A stretch of DNA of 64,000 nt from a virus. How positions within the stretch are numbered: the stretch's first letter is position 1; each line of letters starts with the position of its first letter. The DNA lies in the IMG/VR virus record IMGVR_UViG_3300027969_000063, positions 41,517 through 105,516 of that record, one strand, 5' to 3'. Under the pieces are notes generated by a model. That model was not told where the DNA came from. It worked only from the letters and a program-made list of their open reading frames with translations, and ran no database searches. Shown piece after piece: positions 7,029-64,000 of the stretch. Made by a program: the position numbers and the translations under genes.

Positions 7029-7040
7029 GCCGTCTGTCTA

Positions 7041-7659: not shown

Positions 7660-7665
7660 GATATA

Positions 7666-7703: not shown

Positions 7704-7706
7704 GTA

Positions 7707-8232: not shown

Positions 8233-8238
8233 AGATTT

Positions 8239-8289: not shown

Positions 8290-8292
8290 GGT

Positions 8293-8385
8293 TTATACTG
8301 GTTACGGTATCCAGCGGCATCGTAACGTCATGCCCGCTTTAAAACGCTTCGTAAACTTAGCGGTCCTAAGGTGAAGCCAGTATAA
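8293..8385 (-). ncRNA. Structured multi-stem RNA in the hsp20 leader
   Basis: 9-bp closing stem TTATACTGG/CCAGTATAA, two internal arms, possible GTTACG/CGTAAC pseudoknot. Confidence 0.55.
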
Positions 8386-8388
8386 TCT

Positions 8389-8396
8389 TATTTATA
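8389..8396 (-). promoter_or_regulatory. T4-type late promoter
   Basis: TATAAATA immediately before the structured leader. Confidence 0.65.
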
Positions 8397-25544: not shown

Positions 25545-25552
25545 TATTTATA
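25545..25552 (-). promoter_or_regulatory. T4-type late promoter
   Basis: TATAAATA upstream of gp22. Confidence 0.8.
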
Positions 25553-41210: not shown

Positions 41211-41212
41211 TA

Positions 41213-42988
41213 TTAACTCTTCTCAGGTTTAGGTGCTGTTAAGGCTGCCTTCCGTTTATCATCACGGCGTTTAATGGTATCTTTAAGTTCTTGAATCGTA
41301 TAACGTGGTGGTTTGTGAACTTGTAACAACATGATAGTTGCTTCTGCCACATTAGATTGAGTATGTAAAGCAAACTGTAATTGCTCTTCGGTAATTTCCT
41401 TATCTTTCAACATTCTCATCCACTCACCAACATAGGTATACTTGACATCACATACATCAATATCAATACCCAATTCAATTGACAATGTACTGTCTGAACG
41501 ACCAATCTCCATGCCATCAATTAAACTCTTTTGATTAAACAAAGCAAATGTTCCAGGAGTTAATGGACGCTTGTGTGTAGGATCATCCCAAGCATGGTCT
41601 GAACGATGATGTGGGAACTGTACTTCCCATACGGCACCATTCTCTGATACACGATACATTTCTTTAATGATATCTACGATTGAATGTGTATCATTACCTA
41701 AATGTTCTAGAATATCTTTAGCAACGATGTGCTGGAACTCATCATCTTGAAATGGCCATGGTACTGATTGTAGATCCACGATTTGATCTGGTTCAACATT
41801 CTCTGAAGCATCCACATTAAGAAAGCCATCCATCTTAAAGAAACCACAACCCATGTTCATCTTCTTAGGCTCTTTATCGTGACTTTCATGTTGAACTGGT
41901 TTTAAATTAAATTTCTTTTCAAAATCTTTGTAGAGTTTTTGAAATGTTCCGTTCCATGATTTGGCTTCTTGCTGACGATACAAAGTAACACAATCATAAT
42001 AAGGAGATTTGGTACTCTGTGGTGCACCAAATGTCCATGTATGATATGGTAGAATTGGTGTAAGAATCCAAGTTTGTTTACCAAGTGCAGCAGCCGCATG
42101 AGCAATACTGGTACAAGAGGTAATAACAATGTCAAGATTCTCCATTGCAGCCAATGTATCTTCCCAAGAAGTTAATTGATGTTGTAAATCAATAATGTTC
42201 TCTGGCAAATCAATAATGTTTTGGTCACGCTGTAATGAATACAACTGAACTTCATCGTACTTACCAAGTTCTGTTAAGAAACCAGGAGGGAATCTACGGA
42301 ACTGTTGATGTTCAAATTTAGGATTACCAGCCCAACGAATACCAACTTTAAGTTTGTCAGATTTAATAATATCTTTCCACTCTTCAATCTTTTCTGGTAA
42401 AGCATGTAGGTATTTTTTACTTGGGAAATTTTTGAATGTATTGCCTGATACCCAGCCTGCTGAGAAACCTGGTACCCAATAATCATGAGCAACTAAGTGG
42501 CTTTGATTTCGTAGAATAACACCATCACAACCTTCAATACGCTCAAATACCGATACCACTTCTGGTGATGCGGCCAAATAAACTTTATCTGCACCTAGTT
42601 TTTTAAATGATTCTACAAAACGAGAGTGAATAATTTCATCACCAAATCCACCCTCTAAAGAGATGATAATTGATTTACCTTTGATATCATCTTTTTCAGG
42701 ATTAAAAATGGGAGCATTTGTTTTGAGTGGAGGAGAACCATAGACATTAATAAATCGTCCTGATTCCAACATCTGGCAACCTTCTTGATAATTGCCATCT
42801 TGTAACATGAACCAGCCACGATTAAATGTGTGCCGTGTCCACATTTCAGGATTACCAAGTTCACCTTTGGTGTCTGGAATACCTTCTGGTCCTAGTTTCT
42901 GTAACTTATCAGATATTTGGCGAGCTTTAACAAACTCACCTTTTAACATCAACTGCAATTCACTATCAATATCATGCATTGAATTCAT
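41213..42988 (-). CDS. GT9-like (GT-B) glycosyltransferase fused to a SAM methyltransferase
   Basis: EGGFGDEI, GIRWAGNP, YSLQ, DIVITSCTSIAHAAAALG, SPYY..LYRQ; NMGCG, DILEH, DDPTH. Confidence 0.8.
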   Translation of the reverse strand: MNSMHDIDSELQLMLKGEFVKARQISDKLQKLGPEGIPDTKGELGNPEMWTRHTFNRGWFMLQDGNYQEGCQMLESGRFINVYGSPPLKTNAPIFNPEKDDIKGKSIIISLEGGFGDEIIHSRFVESFKKLGADKVYLAASPEVVSVFERIEGCDGVILRNQSHLVAHDYWVPGFSAGWVSGNTFKNFPSKKYLHALPEKIEEWKDIIKSDKLKVGIRWAGNPKFEHQQFRRFPPGFLTELGKYDEVQLYSLQRDQNIIDLPENIIDLQHQLTSWEDTLAAMENLDIVITSCTSIAHAAAALGKQTWILTPILPYHTWTFGAPQSTKSPYYDCVTLYRQQEAKSWNGTFQKLYKDFEKKFNLKPVQHESHDKEPKKMNMGCGFFKMDGFLNVDASENVEPDQIVDLQSVPWPFQDDEFQHIVAKDILEHLGNDTHSIVDIIKEMYRVSENGAVWEVQFPHHRSDHAWDDPTHKRPLTPGTFALFNQKSLIDGMEIGRSDSTLSIELGIDIDVCDVKYTYVGEWMRMLKDKEITEEQLQFALHTQSNVAEATIMLLQVHKPPRYTIQELKDTIKRRDDKRKAALTAPKPEKS

Positions 42989-43046: not shown

Positions 43047-46000
43047 TTACCTTCTAAAGTTACTTCCAGCACCACCAGAGAATAGGTTGGCGGTATAACC
43101 TGTGGCTAATTGTGCTACTAATACCGGACTAGATCTTGTGACAGTTGATCCATCACCGTACTGACCTACAGCATTATTACCCCAAGCATACAGGTAACTA
43201 TTGGTTTCATTATCAGTTGTAATGGCTATCGTGGTATTATTACCTATAGCAACATCAATAATATTTAAATTTGATATGGCTATATTTACAATGTCGGGAG
43301 TGGACCTACTGGTTGGAACAGTATTAAAACCAAAAGCATTATTGGTATTTGCACCCCATGCATATAAGGAATCAGATAAATTAATACCAAAAGCTGTACT
43401 AAGTCCAATAGATAAAGATTTCCAACCTAAACCTTTTGAATTTTTAATATTTGATTGATTTATTATGGCAGCTCGATCTGTAACACTGGCAGGACTAACT
43501 GTGGTTCCAATACCCATTTGTCCATAAGTATTGTTTCCATAACCATAAGATACATTATTATTATCTAAAAGAAGATAATATTGTACACCACCACCGCCAC
43601 CAGTAACAGCTGTTTTCCATGGCACTCCAGTTGATGCGGAATTTGAAACGATTGATGGTACACCTCCGCCATTTCCCCAATTAAACAAACGGCCAGCAAT
43701 ATCAATAGCTACCGAACTATTACCATTACAATTTATAAAAGAAAAAGAAGATCCACTAACAACCGTTACAGGAGTTGATTTAGAAATTACGGTATTATCA
43801 CCTATTTGACCACTAGAGTTACCGCCCCATCCAAATAAACGGCCTGTGTTAGTAATAGCATGGCCAGCTGTTACCATTGTCCATGAAACTGTGGTAGAAC
43901 CTTCAGCACCAATTTTAACCGGAGATGATCTATTAATTAAAGTACCGTCACCTAAATCACCACTACTATTATCACCCCATGCATATAAAGCACCAGTTAT
44001 ATCAATAGCAAAATTATTATAAGAACCAGCATATACAGATGACCATGAAGATGTACCAATTTTTACAGGAGAAGATTTATTAATAGTTGTACCATCACCG
44101 AATGCGCCAAATAGACCAGTTCCCCAAATGTATAAAGCACCCGTAGTATCAATAGCAATAGTGTTGACATATCCAGCACTTACTGCTGACCATGATTTGG
44201 TACCAATTTTTACTGGAGAAGATTTATCAATCGTAGTACCATCACCTAATTGGCCATTAACATTATAACCCCATGTATAAAGAGCACCTGTAGTATCAAT
44301 AGCTGCTGAATGTCGATTTATTCCAACACTAAGTATAGTCCAAGAATTGCCAAACAAAAGTTGTGGAACAGTTTGTCTTTCAGTAAATGTATTACCTGCT
44401 ATACCGTTACCTAACATTCCATCATTATTGGAACCCCATGTATAAAGAGAACCATCATCACTTATACCACCAGAAGTGGGGCCAAGAGCGCCACCAGTTC
44501 TAAGTAATTTCCAAGATGTAAATGGCTTAGAGTTTGTAATTATTATTGGTTGTGATTTACCAATTGTTGTACCATCACCTAATTGTCCATATTGGTTATC
44601 ACCCCAAATATAATTATATCCATTTTTAACTCCTGTAGTATTTTGATAGTGCGCTTTTACTGAAGTCCAAGGATAAACATCAATTAATACAGGCGAAGAT
44701 TTATCAACTATAGTACCGTCACCCAATCGGCCAGAATTATTGGAGCCCCATGCATGCAATTGGCCAGCAGCAGTAAGACCGACTGTAAAATAGTTACCAA
44801 CACTCACTATTGACCATGAACTTGTACCAATTTTTACCGGTGTAGATTTACCAATTGTTGTGCCATCGCCTAAATTACCACTTGAATTAGCGCCCCATGT
44901 GTACAGAGCACCAGTAGTAGTAATAGCAGCAGTATGGGAACCATCAGCAGATACCGCTGACCATGAAGAATAACTGTTTAATGCTTCGTTTATCACAGAA
45001 ACTAATACTGGTGAAGATTTAGAAACTGTTGAGGTATCACCTAATTGTCCTTGATTATTATAACCCCATACATATGCATTGTTTGCAGTAGTAATGGCTG
45101 CTGTGTTATATTGTGAAGCACTCACGGCTGACCATGAAGAAGAGGAATAACCACTAGTAGTTGTCGAAAGCTGAACAGGTACCGATCTACTAGCTGTTGA
45201 AAGGCCACCTAAGTTACCATAAGGATTGTAACCCCATAACCATAAAGAACCAAGCGTATCAATAGCAGTAGAAGTAGAATATCCAGCAGAAACAAAATTA
45301 AAAGAAATGTTTGATGTGGTATCATAAGGATAACCTAATACAACAGGAGAACTTGTTAAATTGCTAGGTAATATATTAAAATAATTAATACTACCCCAAT
45401 TCCATAAAAGACCATTAATATCAATCGCTGATACATTTGATGTCATTGAAAATACTTTTGTCCATGAGCTAGTACCAATTTGTACTGGTGATGATTTATT
45501 GATTGTAGTGCCATCACCTAATTGGCCTTGAGCATTATAACCCCAAACGTATAAAGCACCATTTGTGGCAATACCTGCTGATGTTGAAAAACCAGATGAT
45601 ATTGCTGACCATGAACTAGAACCAATTTTTATTGGTACTGATCTATTAGATGTTGTACCGTCACCTAAGAAACCTAAGTTATTTTGGCCCCATGCATACA
45701 AAGAACCAGTAGTATCAATACCAAGAACATAACCAGATCCAGCACTTACTGTAGTCCATGAAGAATAAATGGCAGCTGCATTATTTCCAATACCAATGAA
45801 TACTGGTGAAGATTTATTAATTGTGGTACCGTCACCTAAACCACCATAAAGATTATAACCCCATGTATATAAATTACCAGAAGTGGTAATACCAATAACA
45901 CCGAAAATATCTGAACCTATGAATGACCATGAGCTTGTACCAATTTGTACAGGTGAGGATTGATTAATTGTTGTACCATCACCTAGTTGGCCATAAGTAT

Positions 46001-49000
46001 TACTACCCCATGCAAATAATCGGCCATTAATATCAATAGCTCTGTGACCATCGTATCCTGCAGCTAACTTAGACCATGAACTTGTACCAATTTTAACGGG
46101 TGATGATTTATTAATTGTAGTACCATCACCCAATTCACCATTGCTATTATTGCCCCATGTAAATAAGCTGCCATCTTTTGTAATACCAGCTGTATTAGAT
46201 GGACCACTTATGGATATGATTGTCCATGAACTCGAACCAATTTTTATTGGAAATGATTGATTAGTTGTATTACCGTTGCCTAACTGACCAGTAGAATTAG
46301 TACCAGTCATCCATAAACCACCATTAACATCAATTCCTCCTGTGTGGTTGTAACCAAGGCTCACTATTGTAAATGAAGAACCACTATTAATTAATACCGG
46401 TGAGGATTTAGCAACTATAGTACCGTCACCTAATGCACCATTGGTGTTATTGCCCCATGCATACCAAGCACCAGAAGAGGTAATACCTGCCATGTAACTT
46501 ACACCTGCAGCCACAAATGCCCATGAAGATGTGCCAATTTGTACAGGTGAAGATTTAGTGACTGTGGTATTATCACCTAATTGGCCGGCAGTATTTTGAC
46601 CCCATGTGTATAGACGGCCGTTAATATCAATACCTGCTGAAGCAAGTCCTTTTACGCTTACTCTAGTCCATGAAGAGCTACCAATTTTAATTGGTGCTGA
46701 TTTATTATTTGCAGTATTATCACCTAATTGACCATTAGGATTATAACCCCATGTATATAAAGCACCAGTAGAGGTAATAATTGCTTGATTATATTGACCA
46801 GAAGCTACTTGATTCCAAGAAGAATAATATACTGAAGATGTTTGAATTTTCACCGGCAATACATAAGAAAGATTTAAACCTAAATCCGTACCAATTTCTC
46901 CAAAACTATTATCTCCCCATGCCCATAAAGCACCAGTAGAATCAATTGCGCTCGTATGATACGAACCAACAGATACAGATGTCCATGAAGAACTACCAAT
47001 TTGTACAGGTGATGATTTGGCAACCAATGTACCATCACCTAAATTACCAAAACCATTAGCTCCCCAAGTAAATAACCGACCATTAATATCAATTGCTGCA
47101 GTGTTATTACCAACACTTACTTTTGTCCATGAGCTAGTACCAATTTGTATTGGTGATGATTTATTAACCGTAGTACCATCGCCTAATTGTCCATTAGAGC
47201 CACTACCCCACGCAAACAATCGACCTACAGTATCAATTGCTGTTACATAAGAAGTGCCTGCAGCTATAGCTAACCATGAAGAAGAACCAATTTTTACTGG
47301 AGAAAATCTAGTAGTTACTGTACCGTCACCTAATTGGCCTTGTTGATTGTCACCCCATGACCACAATGATGAATCTGAATTTTTAATGGCTAAAAAGAAA
47401 TTAGCAGGACCTCCAGTAATTTGTTTCCATGCACCTGGTATACTTGGTGTTGTAACTACTGGTGAAGATTTATTAATTGTTGTGCCATCACCTAATTGTC
47501 CAAGAGAATTATCACCCCAAGCATATAATTTTTTAAGCGAATCGCTAGCAATGGTGTGTGCTTGGCCTGCACTTACTGCTGACCATGATGAAGTACCAAG
47601 TTGTACTGCAGAAAGTTTATCAATCGTGTTACCGTTACCCAATTGACCTGCAGCATTACCACCCCATGTATATAATTTACCACTAGTGGTGATAGCCGCT
47701 GTGTGCGATACGCCAGCAGTTACAACTGTCCATGAAGAATAGACGTTTAATACAGGATCATATGCAGTAACGAATACAGGAGAAGATTTGGAAGTTGCCG
47801 TACCATCGCCTAATTGGCCTGATGTACCAAGACCCCACATGTATGCTGTATTTGCAGTAGTAACCGCAGCAGTATGAGTACCACCAGCAGATACAGATGT
47901 CCAAGATAAAATTGATGGATTGCTAGTTGGGCCAACTTTAAATGCTGTAGTTTTGTTTATTGTTGTGCCATCACCTAATTGACCGGTAGCATTACCACCC
48001 CAAACATATAACGTGTTTGCAGTAGAAATAGCAGCAGTATGAGAACCACCAGCAGATACGGATGTCCAAGATACAATTGGATTAGTTGGAGCTAAAACAA
48101 ATACAGGCGATGATTTGCTAACAACAGTATTATCACCCAATTCACCAGAGGTACCAAGACCCCATGTAAACAGAACACCAGTTGTTGTGATACCCGCTGT
48201 GGTTGAACCGCCTGCACCTATTGATGACCATGAGCTTGTACCAATTTTTACTGGAGAGGATTTATTAACAGTAGTACCATCGCCTAATATACCACCAGCA
48301 TTATTACCCCATGTATATAAAGCGCCTGTAGTATCAATAGCGGCTATACTACCATTACCAACGTTTGACACAACTGCAATCCATGAACTTGTACCAATTT
48401 TTACTGGAGAGGATTTGGCAATTGTAGTACCATCACCCAAGTAACCTGTGTCAGAAGCATTAGCACTCCATGTAAACAAAGATCCATCAATAGTAATACC
48501 TGCACCAGCAGTTACTACTGACCACGAACTAGATCCAATTTTAACAGGAGAAGATTTAGTAACACTTGTGTTATCACCTAATTGGCCAACATTACCAAAA
48601 CCCCAAGCATATAAAGCACCAGTAATATCAATAGCCCAAGCATTAAGTGAACCAGCAGCTACTTTTGTCCATGAAGAAGAACCAATTTTGACTGGTGAAG
48701 ATTTAGTAACTGTAGTATTATCACCCAATGCACCAAAACTACCACTACCCCATGTCCATAAAGCACCAGTGGAATCAATCGCAACTGCGTGCTGATTTCC
48801 AGCAGCTATTGTACTCCATGAATTATTACCAATTTGTACTGGTGAAGATTTAGTAACTGTAGTACCGTCACCTAATTGTCCAACGTTGTTGTAACCCCAT
48901 GCATACAGAGCACCAGCAGTAGTAATACCAAACGCAACTTGAACTCCTGCAGCTACTACTGACCATGATGATGATCCAATTTTTACTGGTGAAGATTTAT

Positions 49001-51152
49001 TAACTGCTGTATTATCGCCTAATTGACCTATAGCGCCATTACCCCATGTCCATAAACCACCAGTAGTATCAATAGCAACTGCAGCTGATATGTTATAACT
49101 TATTTGACTCCATGTGCTTGGTATAGTAACAGTTGTTTGTACAGGAGTAGATTTATTAATTGTAGTACCATCACCTAATTGGCCGGTAGCATTATTACCC
49201 CAAGCAAACAATTTACCATCTGATGTAATACCGGTTGAGTGTGTACTACCAGCACTTACTGATGACCATGAACTGGATCCAATTTGTACAGGTGAAGATT
49301 TGTTTATTGTTGTACCATCACCTAAGTGACCGTTAGTATTTTGACCCCAAGTATATAAGGCACCGGTAGTGGTGATACCTGCTGTATGTGAAGCACCAGC
49401 TGATGCTACTGACCACGATGATGTACCAATTTTTACTGGTGAAGATTTGGCAACTGTAGTATTATCACCAATTTGACCGGTAGCATTAGAACCCCACGCA
49501 TATAAATTACCATTAATATCAGTAGCGGTAGTATGTATATCACCAGCAGATACAGATGACCAAGAAGAAGATCCAATTTTTACTGGTGAAGATTTTGAAA
49601 CTATTGTGCCATCGCCTAATTGTCCTGAAGTACCAAAACCCCAAGCATATAAAGCACCAGTAGAATCAATAGCAACTATATGTGAATTGCCTGCAGATAC
49701 AGATGACCATGAAGATGTACCAATTTTAACTGGTGAAGATTTTGAAACTACTGTATTATCACCCAATTGTCCTATGGAATTATTACCCCAAGTATATAAG
49801 GCACCGGTAGTGGTGATACCTGCTGTAAATGTTCCATTTCTATTAGCTGAAAGTTGTTTCCAAGTAGGCGCTGAGATTATAGGAATTAATACGGGTGACG
49901 ATCTATTAGTTGTGGTGCCGTCACCAATTTGACCAGTAACATTATAACCCCATGCATATAAATTACCATTAATATCGGTAGCAGATGTGTGATATTGTCC
50001 AGCACTTACTGTTGTCCATGAAGAAGAACCAATTTTAACGGGAGAAGATTTAGCAACGGTAGTATTATCACCTAAACCACCATAATTATTATAACCCCAA
50101 GCATAGAGCGCACCAGTAGAATCAATGGCGGCCATATGTGAAAAACCGGCTGATACTATTGACCATGAGTTTGAACCAATTTTAACAGGAGAAGATTTAG
50201 AAACTATTGTATTATCGCCTAATGCACCATAATTGGTGTTATTGCCCCATGTATACAAAGCACCATTAGTGGTGATACCTGCTGTAAATCCTGCTCCAAT
50301 ACTAGTTACAATTTGTTTGAAAGAAAAATTACCATTTGCAAAACCAATTTGTGTTGGTGTACTATAATATGGTTGACCCGTTATGTAACCAACTTGACCC
50401 GCATCATTTTGACCCCAAGCCCATAGTCCGCCATTTGTTGTAATACCTGTTACATATTGACTTCCAGCACTTACAGATGTCCATGAAGATGTACCAATTA
50501 ATACCGGCGATGATTTATTAATTGTAGTACCATCACCTAATTGATTACTACTATTTAAACCCCATGTATACAAAACGCCAAGTGAATCAATTGCTGCTGT
50601 ATAAGATTGTCCTGCACTCACTATACTCCAAGATTTATTTCCAAGTTGTGTTGGTGTTGATTTGTCAATTGTAGTACCATCACCTAATTGGCCATTATTA
50701 TTAAGGCCCCATACAAACAAAGCACCATCAGTAGTACGAATGGCTGCAAAATGATTGCCAACACCTTGACCTCCTGTAATTGATTTCCAAGGATACTCAA
50801 CAGTTTTTGTTATTGATATTGCTACTGGTGAAGATTTGTTAATTGTAGTACCATCACCAATTTGATAAGCTGAATTATTACCCCATGTGTATAATTTATT
50901 ACCTGTTACAACACCAAAATTAGCATAACCAGATTCAAGTGCTGTAATACTTCCTAAAGGTATTGATGTTGGAGTGGATTTACTGACTGTTGTACCATCA
51001 CCAAGTTCTCCGTTGCTAGCGTTACCTAATACATATAAAGTTTGAGCTGCATCTAATATAGCTGTAGTACCAGAGCTAGTTGTTGCTATTTTTGTAACAG
51101 TATTAGCAGTTGATAAAACTGGAACTTGTGTTGGAAATGAAGTAGTGGTCAT
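43047..51152 (-). CDS. Giant RCC1-repeat beta-propeller protein (2701 aa), probable virion appendage
   Basis: About 52 repeats of SW..VSAG..H..AI...G.LY.WG.N..GQLGDGTT..KSSPV.IG. Confidence 0.88.
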   Translation of the reverse strand: MTTTSFPTQVPVLSTANTVTKIATTSSGTTAILDAAQTLYVLGNASNGELGDGTTVSKSTPTSIPLGSITALESGYANFGVVTGNKLYTWGNNSAYQIGDGTTINKSSPVAISITKTVEYPWKSITGGQGVGNHFAAIRTTDGALFVWGLNNNGQLGDGTTIDKSTPTQLGNKSWSIVSAGQSYTAAIDSLGVLYTWGLNSSNQLGDGTTINKSSPVLIGTSSWTSVSAGSQYVTGITTNGGLWAWGQNDAGQVGYITGQPYYSTPTQIGFANGNFSFKQIVTSIGAGFTAGITTNGALYTWGNNTNYGALGDNTIVSKSSPVKIGSNSWSIVSAGFSHMAAIDSTGALYAWGYNNYGGLGDNTTVAKSSPVKIGSSSWTTVSAGQYHTSATDINGNLYAWGYNVTGQIGDGTTTNRSSPVLIPIISAPTWKQLSANRNGTFTAGITTTGALYTWGNNSIGQLGDNTVVSKSSPVKIGTSSWSSVSAGNSHIVAIDSTGALYAWGFGTSGQLGDGTIVSKSSPVKIGSSSWSSVSAGDIHTTATDINGNLYAWGSNATGQIGDNTTVAKSSPVKIGTSSWSVASAGASHTAGITTTGALYTWGQNTNGHLGDGTTINKSSPVQIGSSSWSSVSAGSTHSTGITSDGKLFAWGNNATGQLGDGTTINKSTPVQTTVTIPSTWSQISYNISAAVAIDTTGGLWTWGNGAIGQLGDNTAVNKSSPVKIGSSSWSVVAAGVQVAFGITTAGALYAWGYNNVGQLGDGTTVTKSSPVQIGNNSWSTIAAGNQHAVAIDSTGALWTWGSGSFGALGDNTTVTKSSPVKIGSSSWTKVAAGSLNAWAIDITGALYAWGFGNVGQLGDNTSVTKSSPVKIGSSSWSVVTAGAGITIDGSLFTWSANASDTGYLGDGTTIAKSSPVKIGTSSWIAVVSNVGNGSIAAIDTTGALYTWGNNAGGILGDGTTVNKSSPVKIGTSSWSSIGAGGSTTAGITTTGVLFTWGLGTSGELGDNTVVSKSSPVFVLAPTNPIVSWTSVSAGGSHTAAISTANTLYVWGGNATGQLGDGTTINKTTAFKVGPTSNPSILSWTSVSAGGTHTAAVTTANTAYMWGLGTSGQLGDGTATSKSSPVFVTAYDPVLNVYSSWTVVTAGVSHTAAITTSGKLYTWGGNAAGQLGNGNTIDKLSAVQLGTSSWSAVSAGQAHTIASDSLKKLYAWGDNSLGQLGDGTTINKSSPVVTTPSIPGAWKQITGGPANFFLAIKNSDSSLWSWGDNQQGQLGDGTVTTRFSPVKIGSSSWLAIAAGTSYVTAIDTVGRLFAWGSGSNGQLGDGTTVNKSSPIQIGTSSWTKVSVGNNTAAIDINGRLFTWGANGFGNLGDGTLVAKSSPVQIGSSSWTSVSVGSYHTSAIDSTGALWAWGDNSFGEIGTDLGLNLSYVLPVKIQTSSVYYSSWNQVASGQYNQAIITSTGALYTWGYNPNGQLGDNTANNKSAPIKIGSSSWTRVSVKGLASAGIDINGRLYTWGQNTAGQLGDNTTVTKSSPVQIGTSSWAFVAAGVSYMAGITSSGAWYAWGNNTNGALGDGTIVAKSSPVLINSGSSFTIVSLGYNHTGGIDVNGGLWMTGTNSTGQLGNGNTTNQSFPIKIGSSSWTIISISGPSNTAGITKDGSLFTWGNNSNGELGDGTTINKSSPVKIGTSSWSKLAAGYDGHRAIDINGRLFAWGSNTYGQLGDGTTINQSSPVQIGTSSWSFIGSDIFGVIGITTSGNLYTWGYNLYGGLGDGTTINKSSPVFIGIGNNAAAIYSSWTTVSAGSGYVLGIDTTGSLYAWGQNNLGFLGDGTTSNRSVPIKIGSSSWSAISSGFSTSAGIATNGALYVWGYNAQGQLGDGTTINKSSPVQIGTSSWTKVFSMTSNVSAIDINGLLWNWGSINYFNILPSNLTSSPVVLGYPYDTTSNISFNFVSAGYSTSTAIDTLGSLWLWGYNPYGNLGGLSTASRSVPVQLSTTTSGYSSSSWSAVSASQYNTAAITTANNAYVWGYNNQGQLGDTSTVSKSSPVLVSVINEALNSYSSWSAVSADGSHTAAITTTGALYTWGANSSGNLGDGTTIGKSTPVKIGTSSWSIVSVGNYFTVGLTAAGQLHAWGSNNSGRLGDGTIVDKSSPVLIDVYPWTSVKAHYQNTTGVKNGYNYIWGDNQYGQLGDGTTIGKSQPIIITNSKPFTSWKLLRTGGALGPTSGGISDDGSLYTWGSNNDGMLGNGIAGNTFTERQTVPQLLFGNSWTILSVGINRHSAAIDTTGALYTWGYNVNGQLGDGTTIDKSSPVKIGTKSWSAVSAGYVNTIAIDTTGALYIWGTGLFGAFGDGTTINKSSPVKIGTSSWSSVYAGSYNNFAIDITGALYAWGDNSSGDLGDGTLINRSSPVKIGAEGSTTVSWTMVTAGHAITNTGRLFGWGGNSSGQIGDNTVISKSTPVTVVSGSSFSFINCNGNSSVAIDIAGRLFNWGNGGGVPSIVSNSASTGVPWKTAVTGGGGGVQYYLLLDNNNVSYGYGNNTYGQMGIGTTVSPASVTDRAAIINQSNIKNSKGLGWKSLSIGLSTAFGINLSDSLYAWGANTNNAFGFNTVPTSRSTPDIVNIAISNLNIIDVAIGNNTTIAITTDNETNSYLYAWGNNAVGQYGDGSTVTRSSPVLVAQLATGYTANLFSGGAGSNFRR

Positions 51153-51177
51153 ATTTTTTTATTTTATTAATATCTAA

Positions 51178-51185
51178 TATTTATC
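51178..51185 (-). promoter_or_regulatory. Late-promoter-like element
   Basis: GATAAATA overlapping the stop of the 4228-aa ORF. Confidence 0.45.
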
Positions 51186-54100
51186 TAAGGTTTCCTAATT
51201 GGCCATTACTATCAAGACCCCATGTGTATAAAGTATTGGTACTGTCAATTGCTGCTGAATGTCCTTGTCCAGTTGCAACAGAAATCCAATTTGATTTACC
51301 TACACTAATTTGAACAGGTGAAGATTTGTTAATTGTAGTACCATCACCCATTTGACCGGAACTATTAAGACCCCATGCAAATAAACGACCACTTGAATCA
51401 ACTGCTAATATTTGGCCAAAAGATGCACTTACTGATACCCATGAAGAATTGCCAACTTGTACCGGTGAAGATTTGTTAATTGTAGTACCATCACCTAAAC
51501 TACCCCAAGTATTATCACCCCACATAAACAACCGACCTTGAATGTCAATACCTACCGTAGTTCTATTAGAAGAAGCTTGAACAAAAGCCCAAGAACTGTT
51601 GCCTATTTTATTAACCCATGAAGTTTTTGTTGTTACTGTACCATCACCTAATGCACCACTAAGTGCATCACCCCATGCATATAGAGCACCAGCCGTGGTA
51701 ATACCTACTACATATCCACCAGGAGTAGCTCCTGTACGGCCTCCACCAACATCTACAATTGTCCAAGAAGATCCAGTTAGTGGTTGACCAGTGCTTGAAC
51801 CAAAACCACCAGAAGTATTGTCACCTTTTTCACCGGTAACTGAATATCCTGTAAAGGTAGCAACACCATTGTTATTTAAAAGGAATGTACTGCAATAAGC
51901 TGTTCCTCCAGCATTATTTGCAGAATTGGTGCCAACAAAACTAAATGATGATCCAGCATAACATAATACCGGTGAAGATGTGGATGCTCCGGCACTAGCA
52001 TTTGCTGGATTTCCTCGATCATTAAAACCCCATGCATATAAAGCACCTTGAGTAGTAATAGCTATACTAATAAAATGAGAGGCTTTTACAAATGTCCATG
52101 AAGAAGTACCAAGTTTTACTGGAGATGATTTAGAAACTATTGTATTATCACCTAATTGACCAGAAGTATTCAAGCCCCAAACCCATAAACCACCAGTAGT
52201 ATCAATAGCCATTGTATGAGAAGCACCAAGACTTATTTTTTTCCAAGTTGCAGATGTGTTATAAAAATTGGTAGTAACCAATGTTTTTTGCGGATTATTT
52301 ACAAGCGGATTAGTTCCTAAACCTAATTGACTATTGGTATTATTTCCCCAACCATATAAACTACCGGATATTCCACGGCCATAGAAGAAGTTTCCTGTAC
52401 CTGATGATATTAAATTAAATGAAGTATCTGCCACTACTGTATCTAAACCAATTTGTACGGGTGAAGATTTGCTAGTAGTGGTGACATCACCTAATTGATA
52501 AGAACTAGCAAGACCCCATGTAAACAGTCGGCCATTAATATCAAGACCTAAATTATTATTATTTGAAAATGGATTACCATTTACCACGGACCAAGATGAT
52601 GAACCAATTTTTATTGGAACGGATCTACTAATTGTTGTACCATCACCTAATTGACCAGAAGCATTAACACCCCAAGCATACAAAGCACCAGTTGAATCAA
52701 TAGCATTTGATAAACCAACATAAGACCAAGATGTAGTATTGTAAGAATATGGAACAGAATTAATTGTTTGAACATTTCTATTGGTTGTTGTGCCATCACC
52801 TAATTGGCCAGAAGTATTAAGACCCCAAGTATATACATTACCTGTAGTATTAATAGCTGCTGCATGAGTACTACCAGCACTTACTGTAGTCCATGATAAT
52901 GAACCAACTTGTACTGGTGATGATCTAGTTGCACCACCATCACCTAATTGACTAGTAGCACCATTACCCCAAGAATATAAACGACCGAGTGTATTGAGAG
53001 CAAATGTACTATCAAGTCCAGCACTCACTACAGTCCAAGAATAATATGTTGAAAGAATGACAGTTGCACCAATTTGTACTGGAGAAGATTTATCAACAAT
53101 AGTATTATCACCTAATTGGCCATAATTATTAACACCCCAAGCAAACAAACGACCAGTATTATCTATAGCAGAACTACCTTGGCCAGAAGATAATTTAGTC
53201 CACGATGAAGTACTAACTTGTACTGGTGATGATCTATTAGTGATTGTACCATCACCAAATGCGCCGCCAGCATTTGAACCCCAAGCCCATAAATTACCAA
53301 TAGAATCAATAGCTGTGGTAGCATAGTTGCTAGTAACTACTTTTGTCCAAGCTCTTGTACCAATTTTTACCGGCGATGATTTATTAATTGTTGTGCCATC
53401 ACCCATAAAACCAGAAGCATTCCATCCCCAAGTATATAATGCACCAGTAGTATCGATAGCCGCTGTAGTAGAAAAACCTACTGATATTAATATCCATGAT
53501 GAAGTACCAATTTGTACCGGTGAGGATTTACCAGCTGAGGTGTTATCACCTAATTGGCCTAAGGAATTATTACCCCACATAAACAAACGACCATTAATAT
53601 CAATTGCTGCACCCCTTGAATCACCACAACTTACCATTGACCATGAACTCGTACCAATTTGTACTGGTGAAGATTTAGCAACTAAAGTACCATCACCTAA
53701 TTGACCAACAGCGTTATCACCCCAAGCATATAAACGACCATTGGTATCGATAGCTAACACATTACTGTATCCAACACTTACTGCTGACCATGAACTTGTA
53801 CCAATTTTAGCAGGTGAAGATTTAGAAACTCCGGCATTATCACCTAATTGTCCGCTAGCTGATGAACCCCAAGTCCACAAAGCACCAGTAGAATCAATAG
53901 CTGCCGACATAGCATTAACAACACCAAATCCGCCGGCGCTTACTTTACTCCATGTGCGATATCCGGTTGGTGTATCCAAATTTGATCCAATTTGTATTGG
54001 AGTGGATTTACTAATTGTAGTACCATCACCTAAATTACCAACTGAATTTTGACCCCATGCCCATAATGTTGAATCTTCAGCACGAATGGCTAAAGTATGA

Positions 54101-57100
54101 GAATTATTTAATCCTCTCGACACTTCACTCCATGTAGAAGATATTGTTGTTGAAGTATTTGCTTGTTGTATTATTACTGGTGAAGATTTACTAATTGTAG
54201 TACCATCACCTAGTTGGCCACTAGTATTTTGACCCCATGTAAACAAACGGCCAATAGTATTAATTGCAGTAGTATAAGAATTACCAAGAGCTACGGATGA
54301 CCACGAATCGGTTCCTATTTGTACAGGTGAAAATTTATTAATTGTGGTACCATCACCTAGTTGGCCAACATTATTTAAACCCCAAGCAAACAAAGCTCTT
54401 GCACTTGTAATAGCTGCTGTATGAGTACCACCAACAGCTACGGCTGACCATGAAGAATAAACATATGTTGTTTCATTATAAACATTAGAAACGGTTACTG
54501 GTGATGATCTAGTAATTGTAGTACCGTCACCTAATTGATATGAAGAATTAAAACCCCATGCAAATAAATTACCAGTCAAATTAATTGCAGTGGTAAAAGA
54601 ACTACCATTACTAACAGCTACGGTTGTCCATGAAGAAGTACCAATTTGTACTGGTGATGATCTAGTGGTTACTGTATTATCACCTAAGTTGCCTAGACCA
54701 TTATAACCCCATCCATACAAACGACTGTTTATATCAATACCCATTGTATGGAGATCACCTGCGGCCACTTTAGTCCATGAGCTTGAACCAATTTTTACCG
54801 GCGATATATTGTTAGTTGTACTGTTGTTACCTAATTGACCATAAGCATTATATCCCCAACCATATAAAGCACCAGTAGTATCAATGGCGGTAGTATAATT
54901 AGTACCTGCACTTACTGCGGTCCATGAAGAATAAACATTTAATGCTTCATTGTATGCTGTAACTAATACTGGAGATGATCTACTGGTTACGCTACGGTCA
55001 CCTAATTGGCCAGAAGTATTAAGACCCCAAGCATATAAATTACCTGTAATATCAATAGCTTTTGTGTTATTATTACCAGCACTTACTACTGACCATGAAG
55101 AGGTACCAATTCTTGCTGCTGTAGATTTAGTTGTTGTTGTATTATCGCCTAATGCACCATAAGTACCACTACCCCATGTCCATAAAGCACCGGTAGTAGT
55201 AATAGCGGCACCACCTGAGGCGCCAGCAGACACAGAAGTCCAAGACGGAAGAGAAGAACCTGTTACAGTATCCGCTAACGTACTCAATAATACTGGTGAA
55301 GATTTAGAAACTGTTGAATTATCAGCTAGTTGTCCATATTGATTGCTACCCCATGTATACAAAGTACCATTACTTAATATACCAGTAGTATAATTATATA
55401 GTGCTGAAGCTGGCATATTAACGGCCACGGCCGACCATGAAGAAGTACCAATTTGTACAGGAGAAGTTTTATCAACAGTAGTATTATCACCTAAATTTCC
55501 ATAACCATTATAACCCCATGCAAATAAAGCACCAGTAGAAGTAATTGCCGCAACGTGTTGTGAACCAGTACTTATTGATGACCAAGAATAAGTTGATACA
55601 ATTTTAGTTGGATAAGAAAGATTTTGTTGACCATATATTCCTGGAATAAAAGTATAACTACCCGATAATGCTTTTTGGTAACCCCACATATACAAACTGC
55701 CATTAGTATCAATTGCCGATTGAGTAGATCCACCAGCATTTACAAATGACCAAGAAGAATAAGTAACTGTGGTGCTATCTACATTAAGTGCTGTTAATGA
55801 ACTTAATTGAAATGGTGGACTACCTGCAGCTGAGTAAGCTGTGCCATCTGTAGCAATAGCAACTGGTTGTGTATAACCAGCATCTACAAATGACCAAGAA
55901 GAAGTACCAATTTTTGTTGGTGACGATCTAGAAATTACTGTACCGTCACCCAAACGACCATCGCTATTTTGACCCCATGTATATAGAGCACCAGTAGTAT
56001 CGATGGCATATGTATAATCCCATCCAGCGGATACTTGTGTATATGAATTTGTACCATATATTTGAGTTGGTGTAACTATAAAAGTTTGGCCGTTACCTAA
56101 TCCACCACTATAACTTGCACCCCATGTCCATATTCGGCCAAGAGTATCAATAGCTGCGCAATGACTTTGGCTAATACTTACCATGGTCCATGAAGAACCT
56201 GCAGGACCAATTTGTACCGGCGAAGAATAGTTAACACTATTAAATCCGTTTTGACCTATACTACCGGAACCCCAAGCAAATAGTCGACCAACAGCATCGA
56301 TAGCTAAAGTTGTAAATGCTGATTTACCAGTAGCAACCATTGCCCATGAAGAAGTACCAATTTTTTGTGGAGTGGTTTGAGGAGTAGTTGCATTACCAAT
56401 ACCTAATTGACCCTGAGCATTATAACCCCATCCATAAAGTTCTCCAGAAATAGTAATGCCCATGGTATAACTATGACCGGCTGAAATTTTACTCCAAGAA
56501 GATGCGCCCACTCCAATTATTCGTTTTGGCGCACTAACAGTAGTTGTTGTACCATCGCCTAATTGATAAGTACTATTATTACCCCACACCCATAAACGAT
56601 TAAGGGTATCAATAAGCATGTAATGATTGGTTCCTGCTGATACTGATGATACTTTAGGACCAAAACCGTAAAGTGATCCGCCATAATTATTATAATAAAG
56701 ACTAATAGTATACAAATTTTGATTATTATCAACAGCATAAGCATTTTGATTTGTATCAATAGATATTTTGCTTAAAGGTACTGTTGCTGGTTTATTAGAA
56801 ACTTGTCCTGCTGCACCACCACTGGCCCATGTATATAAATTTCCTAAATTATCAATTGCAAAAGTTCGATTTGCAGCACTTAGTGAAGTCCAAGATTGAG
56901 TTGAAGGAGCTAAAGGTGTTGATTTAACAAATACTGGTGATGATTTTGTAGCCACTCCTGATCCGTCAGCTAATTGACCATAGGTGTTATCACCCCACAC
57001 ATATAAATTGCCACCAGAATTATATGCTAGAATATTTTGCTGAGTAATCTCTATTGAATTTGGAGACAATCCACTTAAATTAGGAAGAGTTGTCATTATA

Positions 57101-60100
57101 GGACTAACATTGGTGTTATTGTTACCGCTTAAATAATAACCATTATAACCCCAATGCCATAAAGTATTAGTGCTATCAATAGCACAGCTCGCTAAAGCAG
57201 TTTTTGCAAATATCCAACTTCTATCAATACCAATTTGTACAGGTGAAGATTTAGACACGTTAGTACCATCACCTAATTCATATGAGGAATTATAACCCCA
57301 TGTAAACAAACGGCTATTAATATCAATAGCAGATGAAGAGGAATAACCAGCACGCACAAATGACCATGAGCTATTACCAATTTGTACCGGCGAAGCAGCT
57401 GTATATTGAGCAACTGTTGTACCATCACCTAAATTACCATAAGTATTATTAAGTAAACCCCATAAACGACCAACGGTATCAATTGCAAGAATATGAGCTG
57501 CACCTTGAGATGACATTACAAATGAGTTGCCTGCACCCATTTGTACTGGTGAATTTCCTTGTCCTAAACTAGAACCCCAAAAATATAATCGACCACTGGT
57601 ATCAATGGCTGAAAATCCAGCACATTGAAGATCCGTAGCACCTAAAGCTGTCCAGCTTTTATCAGTACCAATTTGTACAGGAGAAGATTTATGAGTAAAT
57701 GTTGAAGCATTATTAATATCACCTAACTGAGAAGCATCATTTGAACCCCATGTGAATAGGCGACCATCAACCGTAATACCTGCTGAAGATGACCTACACA
57801 CCGCTACTGTTGTCCATGAAGAAGTACCAATTTGCATGGCACTATATTGTTTATTTCCTGTTCCTGAATTAACTGAATTATTACCTATTTGGCCACTTCC
57901 ATTAGCACCCCATGCCCATAAAGCACCGGTAGAATCGATGGCTAATGCATGTTGACCTATTGAAACTTTTTTCCAATTACCCGATAATGCAACCGCTACT
58001 GGTGATGATTTATTAACCGCTGTACCATCACCTGGATTGTTACCCCAACTATATGCTTTACCTGTACTATCAATTGCAGATGTAAAAAAGTTACCTGCAG
58101 CCACTTTTGTCCATGAACTAGAGCCAATTTTAACTGGTGAAGATTTTGAAACTGTAGTGCCATCACCTAATTGGCCATAGGTAGCATTAGAACCCCACAC
58201 ATATAAAGCACCTGTAATATCAACAGCAGCTGAATGAGAATTACCAGCAGCTACATATGCCCATGATGATGTACCAATTTTAACTGGCGAAGATTTATCG
58301 ATGGTAGTACCATCACCTAATTGACCGGCAATATTTCGGCCCCACGCCCACAATGATGAATCTTGATTACGAATTGCTAATGTAAAAAATTCATTTTGAG
58401 AAATTTGTTTCCATGTAGCTGTTGTGGATCCAATTAATTGAACGGCTCGAGATTTATCAATTGCAGTATTGTCACTCAATTGACCATTAGAATTATAACC
58501 CCATGCCCACAAAGAACCAGTATAATCAATAGCAGTTGTATGGTAATTACCAGAACTTATTTTTGACCATGATGTATATGAATTTAATGTTTGAGTAAGA
58601 GAAGCGGTAAAAGCAGCAAGAACAACAGGAGAAGATTTGGAAATTGTTGTGCCATCACCAATTGCACCTGATGTGCCAAGACCCCAAACAAATAAATTAC
58701 CATTAACATCAATAGCGGATGTGTGTGTTTGTCCAGCGTATACGGCTGACCATGATGAGGTACCAATTTGTACAGGAGAAGATTTATTAACTGTTTGTCC
58801 ATCACCTAATTGGCCATTAGCATCATTACCCCATGTAAACAAACGACCAACAGAATCAATAGCGGCACAATGAGATTGTCCTGCACTAACAAATGACCAT
58901 GAAGATGAACCAATTTTGGTTGGTAATGATTTTTGAACTGTAGTGCCATCACCTAATTGACCATTAGAACCACTACCCCAAACATATAGAGAACCATCAA
59001 TAGTAATAGCTAATGTATTGGAACCTCCAACAGAAACTTTTGCCCATGAAGAAGAACCTACTTGTACGGGCGATGATTTAGTAACAGTAGTGCCATCGCC
59101 TAAGTTTGCTAAGTTACCATAACCCCATGTAAACAAACGGCCATTAATATCAATAGCGGCCGTATTTGAAGTGCCAGCTGATGCTACTGACCATGAAGAA
59201 GCACCAATTAATGTAGGATTAGATTTACTGGTAGCAGTACTATCACCTATTTGTCCATTAATACCACTACCCCATGTATATAATTTTCCTGTTGTATCAA
59301 TAGCAGCATTATGTAGATAACCTACGGATAGTAATGACCATGAACTTGAACCAATTTTAACCGGAGAAGATTTAGCAACAGTTGTGTTATCACCTAACTG
59401 ACCATAAGTAACGTTACTACCCCATGCATACAAAGCACCAGTAGAATCAATAGCAACTGCATGTGAAAAACCAGCACCAATTTGACTCCACGAAGAAGTA
59501 CCAATTTGTATTGGTGAAGATTTAGCAACTATTGTATTGTCACCTAATTGACCACCGTTATTAGAACCCCATGCCCATAAAGAACCATTAGAACGAATAC
59601 CAAATGTATCTTGAAATGTACCGGGTCCGCCACCTGCTGCGGTTTTACTCCAATAAACTGGTTCTGTATATGTTACAGCTGCAGCTCCAGCTTTTACCGG
59701 TGTGGATCTAGTAACTGTAGTGCCATCACCTAATTGTCCATAAACATTTTCACCCCAAGAATAGATTTGACCATTACTGGATTTTGCTACTGAATAATAG
59801 GTACCAACATCCAAATCAGTCCAAGTAGATGGTATAGTAAATGGTATGACGCTAGTTGAAATTGTTGGAGAATTTACAGGAGTAATATCTGTAATTGGTG
59901 ATGATTGACAAGTCATCAATTTTGTATTTGCTATTGCTGATATTGGTTGAGTTGGTACAGTAAATAATGATCCACTATAAACTGCTGTGCCGTTAACAAA
60001 ACGGAAGTTAGAAATATTTCCAGCAAATGTTGCAGCACCACTACCATCTGCTCCAATTCTTAATGATCCATTTCCTATTGTGCCGGCTTGTGTATCTGTT

Positions 60101-63100
60101 GTTGCATCAAGAGTACCATTAACATATAATTTAACTGTTGAACCTGAACGAACTACAGCAATATGAGCCCATGTATTAATAGACAATGTGCTAGTATAAG
60201 TGGTTGAAATATTACCGTATAGATTTGAAGTTATAGTATTTCCTACTAAAAACCAAGTGTATCTGCCAGTAGCTTCTGAGCCCAATGTAAACAAAGAACG
60301 AGTACCTGTTACGCTAGTTGGATAGTACCAACCTTCAACAGTAAAATCACCAGTACAATTGTATGTCGAATTTATATAACCGGTATTTGTGGTTAAGTAT
60401 TGATTTGTTCCGTTAAATAATACAGAATTAAAACCAAGAGTGCCGGTTGGAATGCTAATTGCTACAGGAGAGGATCTATTTGTAAAAGTATTATCGGCTG
60501 TTGCATTACTATAAGGATTATAACCCCATCCAAATAAAGCACCAGTAGAAGTAATGCCATTTGCCCAATAATTTCCAAGAGATATTACCGACCACGATGA
60601 TGAACCAATTTTTACTGGCGCAGATTTGTTAACTGTAGTACCATCACCTAATTGTCCATAACCATTATACCCCCATGTGTATAAAGCACCAGTAGAATCA
60701 ATGGCGGCCGTACCTAAGTCGCCAACTGCCACGGATGTCCATGAAGAGTTGCCAATTTTAACTGGTGTTGATTTATTAACAGTAGTACCATCACCTAGTT
60801 GACCATTAGTATTATTACCCCATGTGTATAAAGCACCTGTGTTAGTGATACCAGCAAACTGTACTCCATTATCACCAGTAGCAAGTTGTACCCAAGAGTA
60901 TGTTGATCCTGAATTAGCAATTTGTGTTGGTGTACTATAATTTGCAAAGCCAGTTAAGTATCCAATTTGGCCTTGAACATTACTACCCCATGCCCACAAT
61001 TTACCATCTGATGTAATACCTGTTGTAAATAAAGATCCTGCAGATACAGATGACCATGAGCTTGTACCAATTTTTACTGGTGAGGATTTACTAACGGTAG
61101 TATTGTCACCTAATTGATAAGAGCCATTAAATCCCCAAGTATATAAAGCACCTGTAGTATCAATAGCAGCTGTGTGTGTTGATGAAGCAGTTATGGATGT
61201 CCATGAAGAGTTGCCGATTTTAACAGGCAATGATTTGCTAACTGTAGTACCATCACCTAATTTTCCAATTGCACCATCACCCCACGCATACAAAGCACCA
61301 AGCGAATCAATAGCAACCGAATGTGAATATCCAGCACTTACTTTTGACCAAGATTTGGCACTAATTAATACTGGAGAGGATCTAGTAACTACAGTACCAT
61401 CACCAAGTTGACCGCTAGCATTACCACCCCATCCATATAAAAGTCCAGTATTAGAAATAGCTAATGTGTGGCTAACTCCTTCCGAAATTTGAGCCCAAGA
61501 ATGTGGTGTTGCAGAATTAGGAAGTTTTGTTGGTACAGTATATAATGATTGGTTAATAAAGTTTCCAAGTTGGCCAAAAGTATTACTACCCCATGTCCAT
61601 AATGAACCATCGGTTGCAATTGCAGTAGTGTGAGAATCACCAGTACCTATGGATGTCCATGAATTAGAACTTCTTAATGGATATATTATGGTATTTAATG
61701 AAGAAACAACACCACCATTATTAGTAATTGTAAACGCATTGGTGCTGTTATCAATGAATGTGTCTGATTGACAAGTTAACAATGCTGTGTTGGCAATAGC
61801 AGTCAATGGTACAGATAATGTGTTAAAGTCAGATGTATATACAGCAGTACCTTTAACAAAACGAAGATTAGAAATAGAACCAGTAAATCTACTACCACCA
61901 GCGGAAACTGCCTCACCAATGTATAGAGGTTGAGCATTACCATTAAGTGTGGTGGTATTTGTAAATTGTAGAACAGCACGGCCATCCACATAAACTGTGT
62001 TGTTGTTTGTGCCTGAACCATTTCTAACCCAAGCTACATGATGCCAAGTACCATCAGTAATTGGTACTGAAATATCATTTAGTGCCGATTGGCCAATGAT
62101 AGCTCTAAGTAAATTTGATTTAAATCCAAAATTCCATTCACCTAATGCACCTGTGTTATATTGACTAATTATACTAGCGGTTTGAGCATCACTACCATAA
62201 GTTGTATTGAGCCAAGCTTCAATTGTAAAATCACCACTACCTGGCTGATTTGCTACAGTATTAGGAGTACTCAAATAACAACCGCCAGCTCCATTAAATT
62301 GTGAAGCAAAAGTACTAAATGTATTAAGAGCACCAACTTGTACAGGTGAAGATTTACTAATTGTAGTACCATCACCTAATTGATAAGAACCATTTAAACC
62401 CCAAGCATATAATTTTCCATCTGAAGTGACACCAAATCCTGCAGAGTTACCGGCGTTTACTGTTGACCAAGAACTTGTACCAATTTGTACTGGCATTGAT
62501 TTATTAACTACAGTACCATCACCTAATTGTCCAGCAGTATTATTACCCCATGCCCACAATGTTGAATCTTGATTACGAATTGCTAGTGTAAAATTGGCAC
62601 CAGGAGCTTTAGATGCAGAAACAATTCTCCATGAGGAATATGATGCAACAGTATTAACCACTACAGGAGATGATCTATCAATAGATGTACCATCACCTAA
62701 ACCACCCAAATAAGTACCGTTATTTGAACCCCAAGCATATAATGTGCCAAGGCTGGTAACAGCAAATGCTTGAGAATTTCCAACACTTACTGTTGACCAT
62801 GAGCTTGTACCAATTTGTACTGGAGATGATTTAGTAATCGTAGTGCCGTCACCTAATTGACCATTAGCATTAAGCCCCCAAGTAAACAAACGTCCAACAG
62901 TATCAATGGCAGCTGAATAAGAATTAGCTGCACTTATTTTTGACCAAGAGGATGAACCAATTTTAACTGGTGATGATCTAATAGATGCTGTGTTATCACC
63001 TAAAGCACCACTATTAAAACCCCATGCATACAATGCGCCAGTAGAATCAATAGCAATTGTATGAATTTGGCCAGTTGATACTGTTGACCATGAAGAATTG

Positions 63101-63881: not shown

Positions 63882-64000
63882 TTAAACGTTTTGTGCTGAC
63901 ATTACTGCATTGTAACTTGTGCCTGCGTCTGTCGTAAAAATAGTAAGTATGTCCCTTTTACCGTTGGTGTATGTTAATGTTGGAGCTATGCCACTAGGAA
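63882..64000 (-). CDS. C-terminus of a tail-fibre-like protein (partial)
   Basis: ...PSGIAPTLTYTNGKRDILTIFTTDAGTSYNAVMSAQNV*, a C-terminal motif common in phage fibre proteins. Confidence 0.65.
   Translation of the reverse strand, partial: PSGIAPTLTYTNGKRDILTIFTTDAGTSYNAVMSAQNV

Follow-up and report, generated by a model that had tools for sequence, protein, structure and literature searches.

RCC1-like domains, such as those of RCC1, UVR8, HERC2 (its RCC1-like domains, RLDs), RPGR and BLIP-II, are the closest described relatives of the system treated here, and the known members are single seven-blade β-propeller rings formed within one chain. This article deals with two adjacent giant genes of the same repeat family (PF00415/PF25390), the open reading frames (ORFs) ORF1 and ORF2, which encode 4228 and 2701 amino acids (aa), respectively. 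They lie in a stretch of 64,000 nucleotides (nt), hereafter the window, that forms the final 64 kilobases (kb) of a 105.5-kb virus contig (IMG/VR record IMGVR_UViG_3300027969_000063, positions 41,517 to 105,516). In contrast to the known RCC1-like domains, the window would encode about 18 rings in two chains. The cluster as a whole opens with strands C–D of a blade and closes with strands A–B, like human RCC1, whereas its inner rings follow UVR8 in their register and its two outermost ends apparently share the closure of the RCC1 type. The evidence inclines us to read ORF1 and ORF2 as two translated halves of one giant RCC1 array, created by a fission within one blade and provided with two inter-chain joints.

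Propeller joints closed in trans have been described in proteins of the nuclear pore and of vesicle coats. Sec13 forms six blades of an open propeller, to which Nup145C, Sec31 or Sec16 adds the closure in trans; in Sec13–Sec16 the partner contributes three strands of the shared blade and Sec13 its outermost strand (PMC2922654). The same 3 + 1 division is proposed for a putative complex of ORF1 (strands A-B-C) and ORF2 (strand D). The Sec13 complexes, however, belong to eukaryotic coats, are WD40 propellers and have a single extra blade instead of a repeat array, whereas the window differs in family, host and scale and would contain a second joint of ~3.5 + 3.5 blades. Natural oligomeric propellers are rare (PMC9218822). 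Those such as Ph1500 and the fragment lectins also have rings built from more than one chain, but they are homo-oligomers of short fragments, while the window would encode a hetero-dimer derived from the fission of a giant gene. In triple propellers of the DDB1/CPSF160/SF3B3 type, seven-blade rings are formed within one protein from non-contiguous segments, and the termini rejoin; these belong to another propeller family and consist of a single chain with three rings only. In the donor-strand complementation of chaperone-usher pili, the N-terminal strand of the next subunit completes the β-sheet of the previous one, although in this case the fold is immunoglobulin-like and the process is polymerising and chaperone-driven. 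Our literature search found no papers on phage RCC1 arrays that are split or nested, nor a description of a trans-closed propeller joint for phage fibres.

Two giant genes filled with RCC1 repeats

The frame of ORF1 is open over 12.7 kb and that of ORF2 over 8.1 kb. RCC1 repeats fill both genes, with LamG inserts in ORF1 (Table 1). The Pfam family PF00415 is recognized in 54 stretches of ORF1 and 44 of ORF2, with scores of 1566 and 1226 bits, respectively, against a curated cut-off of 21.7, which places both among the RCC1-repeat proteins; the scores for PF25390 are 2400 bits (ORF1) and 1659 bits (ORF2). A hidden Markov model (HMM) of 49 columns, made from clean repeats, was used to parse every unit into four strands: A (SSWxxVSAG), B (HTAAI), C (LYTWG, followed by a GQLGDGT loop) and D (SSPVQIG).

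This parsing shows that neither gene begins and ends at the limits of a blade. ORF1 starts with ~20 residues followed by strand C (TLYAWG), that is, with strands C–D of a blade, and finishes with ...LYTWGLDSNGQLGNLR (GQLGNLR) before the stop codon TAA (51183-51181), having strands A-B-C of another one. The N-terminus of ORF2 is MTTTSFPTQVPV, and its C-terminus, ...GYTANLFSGGAGSNFRR, is a weak A–B half blade, the counterpart of the C–D start of ORF1. The sequence agrees with the original prediction, made by inspection of the window, that ORF1 opens with the second half of a blade while ORF2 closes with a first half, and that ORF1 stops in the middle of a blade whose remainder begins the next gene 28 nt later.

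Table 1. Features of the two RCC1 genes and their junction (window coordinates).
Feature	Coordinates	Strand	Description
ORF1	51181..63867	minus	4228 aa; 74 RCC1 blades (strand-C count) and 2 LamG inserts
ORF2	43047..51152	minus	2701 aa; N-terminal strand D, 52 RCC1 blades, C-terminal A-B half blade
Last ORF1 blade	51184..51297	minus	Residues 4191-4228; strands A, B, C and GQLG loop, without strand D
ORF2 residues 1-12 (MTTTSFPTQVPV)	51117..51152	minus	Strand D absent from last ORF1 blade; relatives begin with the same strand
Spacer	51153..51180	minus	28 nt, A/T-rich; without Shine-Dalgarno sequence; unchanged in other assemblies
GATAAATA	51178..51185	minus	T4-type late-promoter-like (NATAAATA); over ORF1 stop, 33 nt upstream of ORF2 ATG
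TAA in ORF2 frame	51159..51161	minus	3 codons upstream of ATG; blocks simple frameshift fusion
ORF1 residues 20-146	63430..63810	minus	C-D hairpin and 2 blades; proposed N-side of shared root ring
ORF1 residues 152-516	62320..63414	minus	Modelled closed seven-blade ring, UVR8 register (strand A first, strand D last)
First LamG (concanavalin-like) insert	61669..62331	minus	ORF1 residues ~513-733, immediately after modelled ring
Second LamG insert	59833..60453	minus	ORF1 residues ~1139-1345
ORF2 residues ~2512-2701	43050..43619	minus	3 degenerate blades and A-B tail; proposed C-side of root ring

The junction lies within one blade

The two reading frames are offset by +1 and separated by a spacer with no copies elsewhere in the window. 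Both the in-frame TAA three codons before the ORF2 ATG and the late-promoter-like GATAAATA over the ORF1 stop, described in the original prediction, are present. The tail of ORF1 alone gives 51.2 bits and covers positions 2-36 of the 49 of the repeat HMM. When it is fused in silico to the head of ORF2, the score rises to 59.6 bits and the match runs without gaps over positions 2-48, with residues 1-12 of ORF2 occupying positions 37-48; as far as sequence can tell, the partner has exactly the missing strands. Because both ends fit one repeat in this gapless way, the split at the DNA level corresponds to a 31-nt insert (TAA plus 28 nt) and the replacement of a Thr codon by ATG. The split is real, it is located within one blade, and nothing has been lost.

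Read support over the junction is provided by Logan contigs of independent freshwater runs from three other studies, which span positions 51152-51183: X3 (518 nt, 0 differences), X4 (514 nt, 10 substitutions) and X5 (172 nt, identical). None of them shows an insertion or deletion, and no variant position falls inside the stop, the spacer or the start. An exact search for the junction in IMG/VR found no other contigs. That the junction is an artefact of assembly or sequencing in a repetitive region is barely credible; repeats do abound in this DNA, and 133 nt of contig remain upstream of ORF1, but the spacer is identical in all the bridging contigs and free of indels.

Another way to make sense of the junction would be recoding, in which ribosomes would shift frame, or hop as they do in gene 60 of T4, and so yield one polypeptide. 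This idea suits a T4-like phage. However, the search for an open path from the ORF1 frame into the ORF2 frame encountered stops in both frames: with a TAA in the ORF2 frame ahead of its ATG and the ORF1 stop 28 nt earlier, no single shift can join the frames. Matching take-off and landing codons are not seen at the junction, and relatives have 0-nt and overlapping junctions with an ATG of their own, so recoding is judged very improbable.

Expression of the second gene

Of the ATAAATA motifs in the window, nine are on the coding strand and one is on the opposite strand. Gene starts follow five of these copies at a distance of 31-59 nt; among them are the starts of the sheath gene (31605), the next gene (29860) and ORF2 (-33), and NATAAATA is present at -31 to -59 before four genes besides ORF2. 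The -10 element of a T4-type late promoter is TATAAATA-like, and this distribution would fit late promoters of that type with the form NATAAATA. Sites of this type on the minus strand are found, for instance, at 25545-25552 and upstream of the starts 29860, 31605 and 9432. The octamers alone, GATAAATA among them, are not enriched over shuffles in the window. No Shine-Dalgarno sequence precedes ORF2, whose leader is A-rich. In relatives, the equivalent junctions overlap or abut, which suggests translational coupling. ORF2 would probably be made from the co-transcript as well as from its own late promoter.

These features bear on the possibility of a recent gene decay, in which a disrupting insertion would have killed the downstream part of the gene and left ORF2 as an untranslated remnant. 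In favour of this are the unsplit state of the closest informative relatives and the very fast evolution of the array. Against it, the 8.1-kb frame does not contain one stop, the ATG is clean and has NATAAATA at -33 as other late genes do, and equivalent splits have been retained in other clades. Moreover, the junction is the same in samples dated 2017 to 2022, including the strain with 10 single-nucleotide polymorphisms in 514 nt (contig X4), of which eight are in ORF2 and four of these eight are synonymous. Decay is therefore regarded as quite improbable.

Blade counts and whole rings

Blades were counted with a sub-HMM of strand C and odd spacings were inspected, a procedure that needed judgement on a few degenerate blades. 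The window has 74 + 52 = 126 blades. Among its relatives, the single-gene clusters L108, L112 and G002 have 21, 28 and 84 blades, respectively, and the two-gene clusters G001 and L091 have 40 + 65 = 105 and 26 + 30 = 56. Cluster totals are multiples of seven in all six cases, while none of the six single genes of the split clusters has such a number. ORF1 (74) leaves a remainder of 4 and ORF2 (52) of 3 after division by seven. The original prediction assigned 3.5 root blades to each chain; the remainders agree with that figure, although they are uncertain by about one blade, three of the blades being degenerate. The multiple-of-seven totals are good but not decisive evidence, because degenerate blades needed judgement and two further clusters, G004 and G005, could not be cleanly counted.

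The multi-ring RCC1 homologues of the protein database (P0003-P0122) fall into length classes of ~1090, 1450 and 1800 aa, equal to 3, 4 and 5 rings. A count of the strand-A motif, tried as an independent check, was too insensitive. No seven-blade periodicity was found in the similarity from blade to blade.

Predicted structures and proposed ring layout

In the AlphaFold2 model of ORF1 residues 1-516 (25-row alignment), the predicted local distance difference test (pLDDT) is 85 and the predicted template modelling score 0.68. Residues 152-516 are modelled as a closed ring of seven blades, the one ring of ORF1 modelled in this way, which superposes on UVR8 (4dnv_A) with Z 54.6 and a root-mean-square deviation (rmsd) of 1.6 Å over 352 of 370 residues. 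The match to RCC1 (1a12) has a Z of 41.7, and residue 34 of human RCC1 aligns to model residue 174. Residues 20-146, a C–D hairpin and two blades (2.5 blades in all), are predicted with pLDDT 76-96 outside this ring, behind a low-confidence linker (146-154). AlphaFold2 does not close the N-terminal half blade of ORF1 in cis, in line with the shared ring of the original prediction. Inner rings are thus modelled as closed in a single chain, while for the terminal blades the remainders of 4 and 3 and the 2.5 unclosed N-terminal blades speak against closure within one polypeptide.

L108, a complete single-gene relative of 1094 aa, was modelled with an 18-row alignment (pLDDT 70). Two closed rings are predicted, one at residues 457-804 (UVR8, Z 50, rmsd 1.7, 340 aligned) and the other at 80-441 (RCC2, Z 37). 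Both are contiguous from strand A to strand D, and the remaining 1.5 N-terminal and 5.5 C-terminal blades add up to seven. The model points to the same layout of a root with inserted rings that is proposed for the window. A tandem arrangement in which every ring has the RCC1-type 2 + 2 closure would place the ORF1 ring at ~20-375 and is contradicted by the ring ranges in both models. A prediction of the complex between ORF1 3808-4228 and ORF2 1-378, with a 7-row alignment for each and without controls, gave a score of 0.00, which speaks neither for nor against binding.

The proposed array would have about 126 blades, or 18 seven-blade rings, plus two LamG domains. It would begin like RCC1 with strands C–D of the closure blade and end with the matching A–B, and complete UVR8-type rings would be inserted between these ends into a "root" ring. 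ORF1 would comprise root blades 1-3, ring 4-10, LamG, root blade 11, ring 12-18, LamG and eight rings (21-27 ... 70-76); ORF2 would consist of strand D, seven rings (1-7 ... 43-49), root blades 50-52 and the A–B tail. The fission site would be the GQLGDGT loop of a single blade, probably the last one of ORF1 ring 70-76. Two joints may result from this layout. In the first, the N-terminal strand D of ORF2 would complete the three-stranded last blade of ORF1. In the second, the root ring would be formed by ~3.5 blades from the N-terminus of ORF1 and ~3.5 blades from the C-terminus of ORF2. Located in the tail-fibre/neck region, the array is most likely a virion fibre or adhesin.

Under this layout, both LamG domains fall at ring ends. 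Linkers of at least 5 aa are enriched at the ring boundaries predicted by the layout (10/16 vs 26/106, Fisher p 0.0035, post hoc). When the boundary phase is anchored at the junction, long linkers are more numerous in both ORFs than with any other phase, and the summed gap reaches its maximum in ORF1 and a shared maximum in ORF2. The idea that no uninterrupted run between long spacings exceeds seven blades proved untrue, runs of 8-16 being common; long linkers are therefore unreliable as brackets of rings. As for the propeller "tree" of the original prediction, inserted rings are indeed what the models suggest, but one level of insertion suffices in both of them. The partition into rings, derived from two predicted models and counting, the binding of the chains and their function are all inferred.

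Relatives and the forms of the junction

Relatives were found through the 591-aa gene located directly downstream of the giants, which gave 34 related contigs; whole clusters were retrieved for four. Nearly all 34 contigs have RCC1 ORFs in the same slot. These are single genes (1094, 1491 and 4384 aa), pairs (1981 + 4525, 1346 + 1663 and 4821 + 5123 aa) and a group of three (3286 + 3105 + 5159 aa). Unsplit homologs, for which the original prediction proposed a search, do exist, with 4384 aa and with at least 6285 aa without a break. In every cluster, the first gene has ~20 residues and then strand C, and the last gene ends with A–B, as in the register of RCC1. A survey of all 200 loci showed that the small RCC1 genes of other phages are self-contained, with an extension and strand C first and A–B last.

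All internal gene boundaries are alike in that the upstream gene stops just past GQLGDxT, and in all five junction forms its end lies at HMM positions 35-40 of 49. The five forms are the 28-nt spacer of the window, a 15-nt spacer that contains TATAAATA, TAAATG, an ATGA overlap, and TAATG. In four of them, the downstream gene starts with Met followed by strand D. The cluster G004 (L121 + L122) has three RCC1 genes, and its first boundary, GQIGNNT-TAATG-LSWTT (reversed stretch 11480-11560), has strand D on neither side, resembling the links of D-less blades (33-37 aa spacing) within several relatives.

In the tree of the 591-aa neighbour, the junction forms are placed in separate, well-supported clades interleaved with unsplit lineages, and the nearest informative relatives of the window (L112 and L086) are unsplit. 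At least four lineages have therefore been cut in this same loop, either through fission on several occasions or through an old split with later fusions. A single ancestral gene of ~6,900 aa, as originally predicted, is conjectural: RCC1 arrays are non-collinear even between close relatives, and the orthologous position was not found in the unsplit relative of 6285 aa. In the closest relative, L085 (positions 1-9400 compared with 43047-51152), whose 591-aa protein is 96% identical, the array cannot be aligned except for the final ~320 nt of ORF2. This is the sole part of the array with more than 88% nucleotide identity, a level that the downstream genes also exceed. In its behaviour the RCC1 array resembles a hypervariable cassette whose C-terminal end is conserved. 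A ratio of nonsynonymous to synonymous substitution rates (dN/dS) against L085 was meaningless, the alignable ORF2 being limited to those ~320 nt. Closer relatives, sought with the N-terminus of ORF1, reached 55% identity at most. L088 and L089, a lineage within the same clade, have a 2576-aa protein devoid of RCC1 repeats in this slot; it follows that the whole fibre gene has been replaced in that lineage.

A broader reading, namely that root rings with inserted strings of rings were cut repeatedly at one loop in at least four lineages, giving two- and three-chain arrays joined by a donated strand and a half-and-half ring, is somewhat less likely than not.

How far the split-array explanation holds

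Fission and the non-integral ring content of each gene are well supported, and a physical heterodimer may reasonably be inferred from them; that it is obligate, as in the original prediction, is a further conjecture. Several observations weigh against this explanation. Regarding the models, AlphaFold2 results are known through pLDDT and alignment ranges only, any seven consecutive blades might model as a ring, and the root ring was never seen to close, since pLDDT stays below 35 for the first 77 residues of L108; besides, only one of the four long linkers of the L108 model is at a ring boundary. Regarding the counts, ORF1 units 41, 47 and 72 and a 33-aa insert in the first gene of L091 (L091_A) were judgement calls. 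One blade more or fewer in ORF1 breaks the total of 126, L091_A could have 27 blades, and the counts of G004 and G005, ambiguous by 1-3 blades, were left unused. Finally, in the fifth junction form (TAATG, between the genes A and B of G004) the downstream gene begins at strand A, and D-less blades occur inside relatives at 33-37-aa spacing. Owing to these two facts, a three-stranded last blade may be tolerated unpaired.

The same two facts favour the most serious competitor, which accepts the split as real and takes the proteins to be independent. On this view the cut would simply lie near a ring boundary, the partial ends would be tolerated or bound to other parts of the virion, and the site would recur only through the Shine-Dalgarno-like codons of GQLGDG (GGN GAY GG), from which translation of the downstream part could restart. 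It is also in line with the ATGA and TAAATG junctions, which occur just past GGAGAT- or GGGGA-like sequences, whereas the junction of the window has no Shine-Dalgarno-like sequence. Independence does not readily account for the consensus strand D retained at the N-terminus of four diverged downstream genes, for whole rings that appear in cluster totals and never in the single genes of split clusters, or for the N-terminal half blade of ORF1 that is left unclosed in cis in the model. Independent proteins are thus considered unlikely, though far less so than decay, recoding or an artefact, and two halves of one split array are the preferred reading. No further RCC1 genes able to supply blades are found in the 105-kb record.

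The phage and the gene neighbourhood

The minus strand carries every long ORF of the window. On the 3′ side of both giants lie homologues of T4 neck and tail genes: head-tail adaptor, head closure, sheath stabiliser, collagen-like fibre, large terminase and tail sheath. In a collection of phage GenBank genomes, the best matches of the tail sheath, with 50-57% identity, are Stenotrophomonas phage DLP_6, Methylophilales phage Melnitz and pelagimyophages; the same collection contains distant RCC1 matches only, and no close relative of the giants. The sequencing runs that contain DNA of the window are freshwater, lake and pond metagenomes. From this tail-gene homology and these habitats it follows that the source is an uncultured freshwater T4-like myovirus.

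The giants are flanked by a large gene of the fibre region, of which the contig has the last codons alone, and by a cassette that includes a protein with a methyltransferase domain. On the first side, the contig ends in the 3′ end of this gene (63882-64000), 133 nt upstream of ORF1. The C-terminus of the truncated gene (...TNGKRD...) has homologues at the end of a 1718-aa ORF of L112 (without Pfam match), and in the gene that precedes the RCC1 cluster in all relatives. Several relatives have an additional gene of ~190 aa (MANYAHIE...) between that upstream gene and the first RCC1 gene. On the other side, four genes (38219-42988) are found between the giants and the neck gene. One of them encodes a 473-aa protein with the methyltransferase domain PF08241, and the 591-aa protein next to the giants has no Pfam match and weak methyltransferase matches in PHROG. 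These genes may constitute a cassette for fibre modification.

Implications for phage fibres

Contact with the host surface is probably made by the hypervariable RCC1 arrays that this group possesses. Should the model hold, the locus and its relatives would show how proteins of ~7,000 residues are made and evolve. The unsplit, two-gene and three-gene clusters, with the same cut site in several lineages, would then represent a natural series on where arrays can be cut and still assemble. If true, the split array would also reveal a new kind of fibre-protein joint in a widespread freshwater T4-like group, a heteromeric propeller joint undescribed for viruses, which might allow the halves of hypervariable fibres to be swapped.

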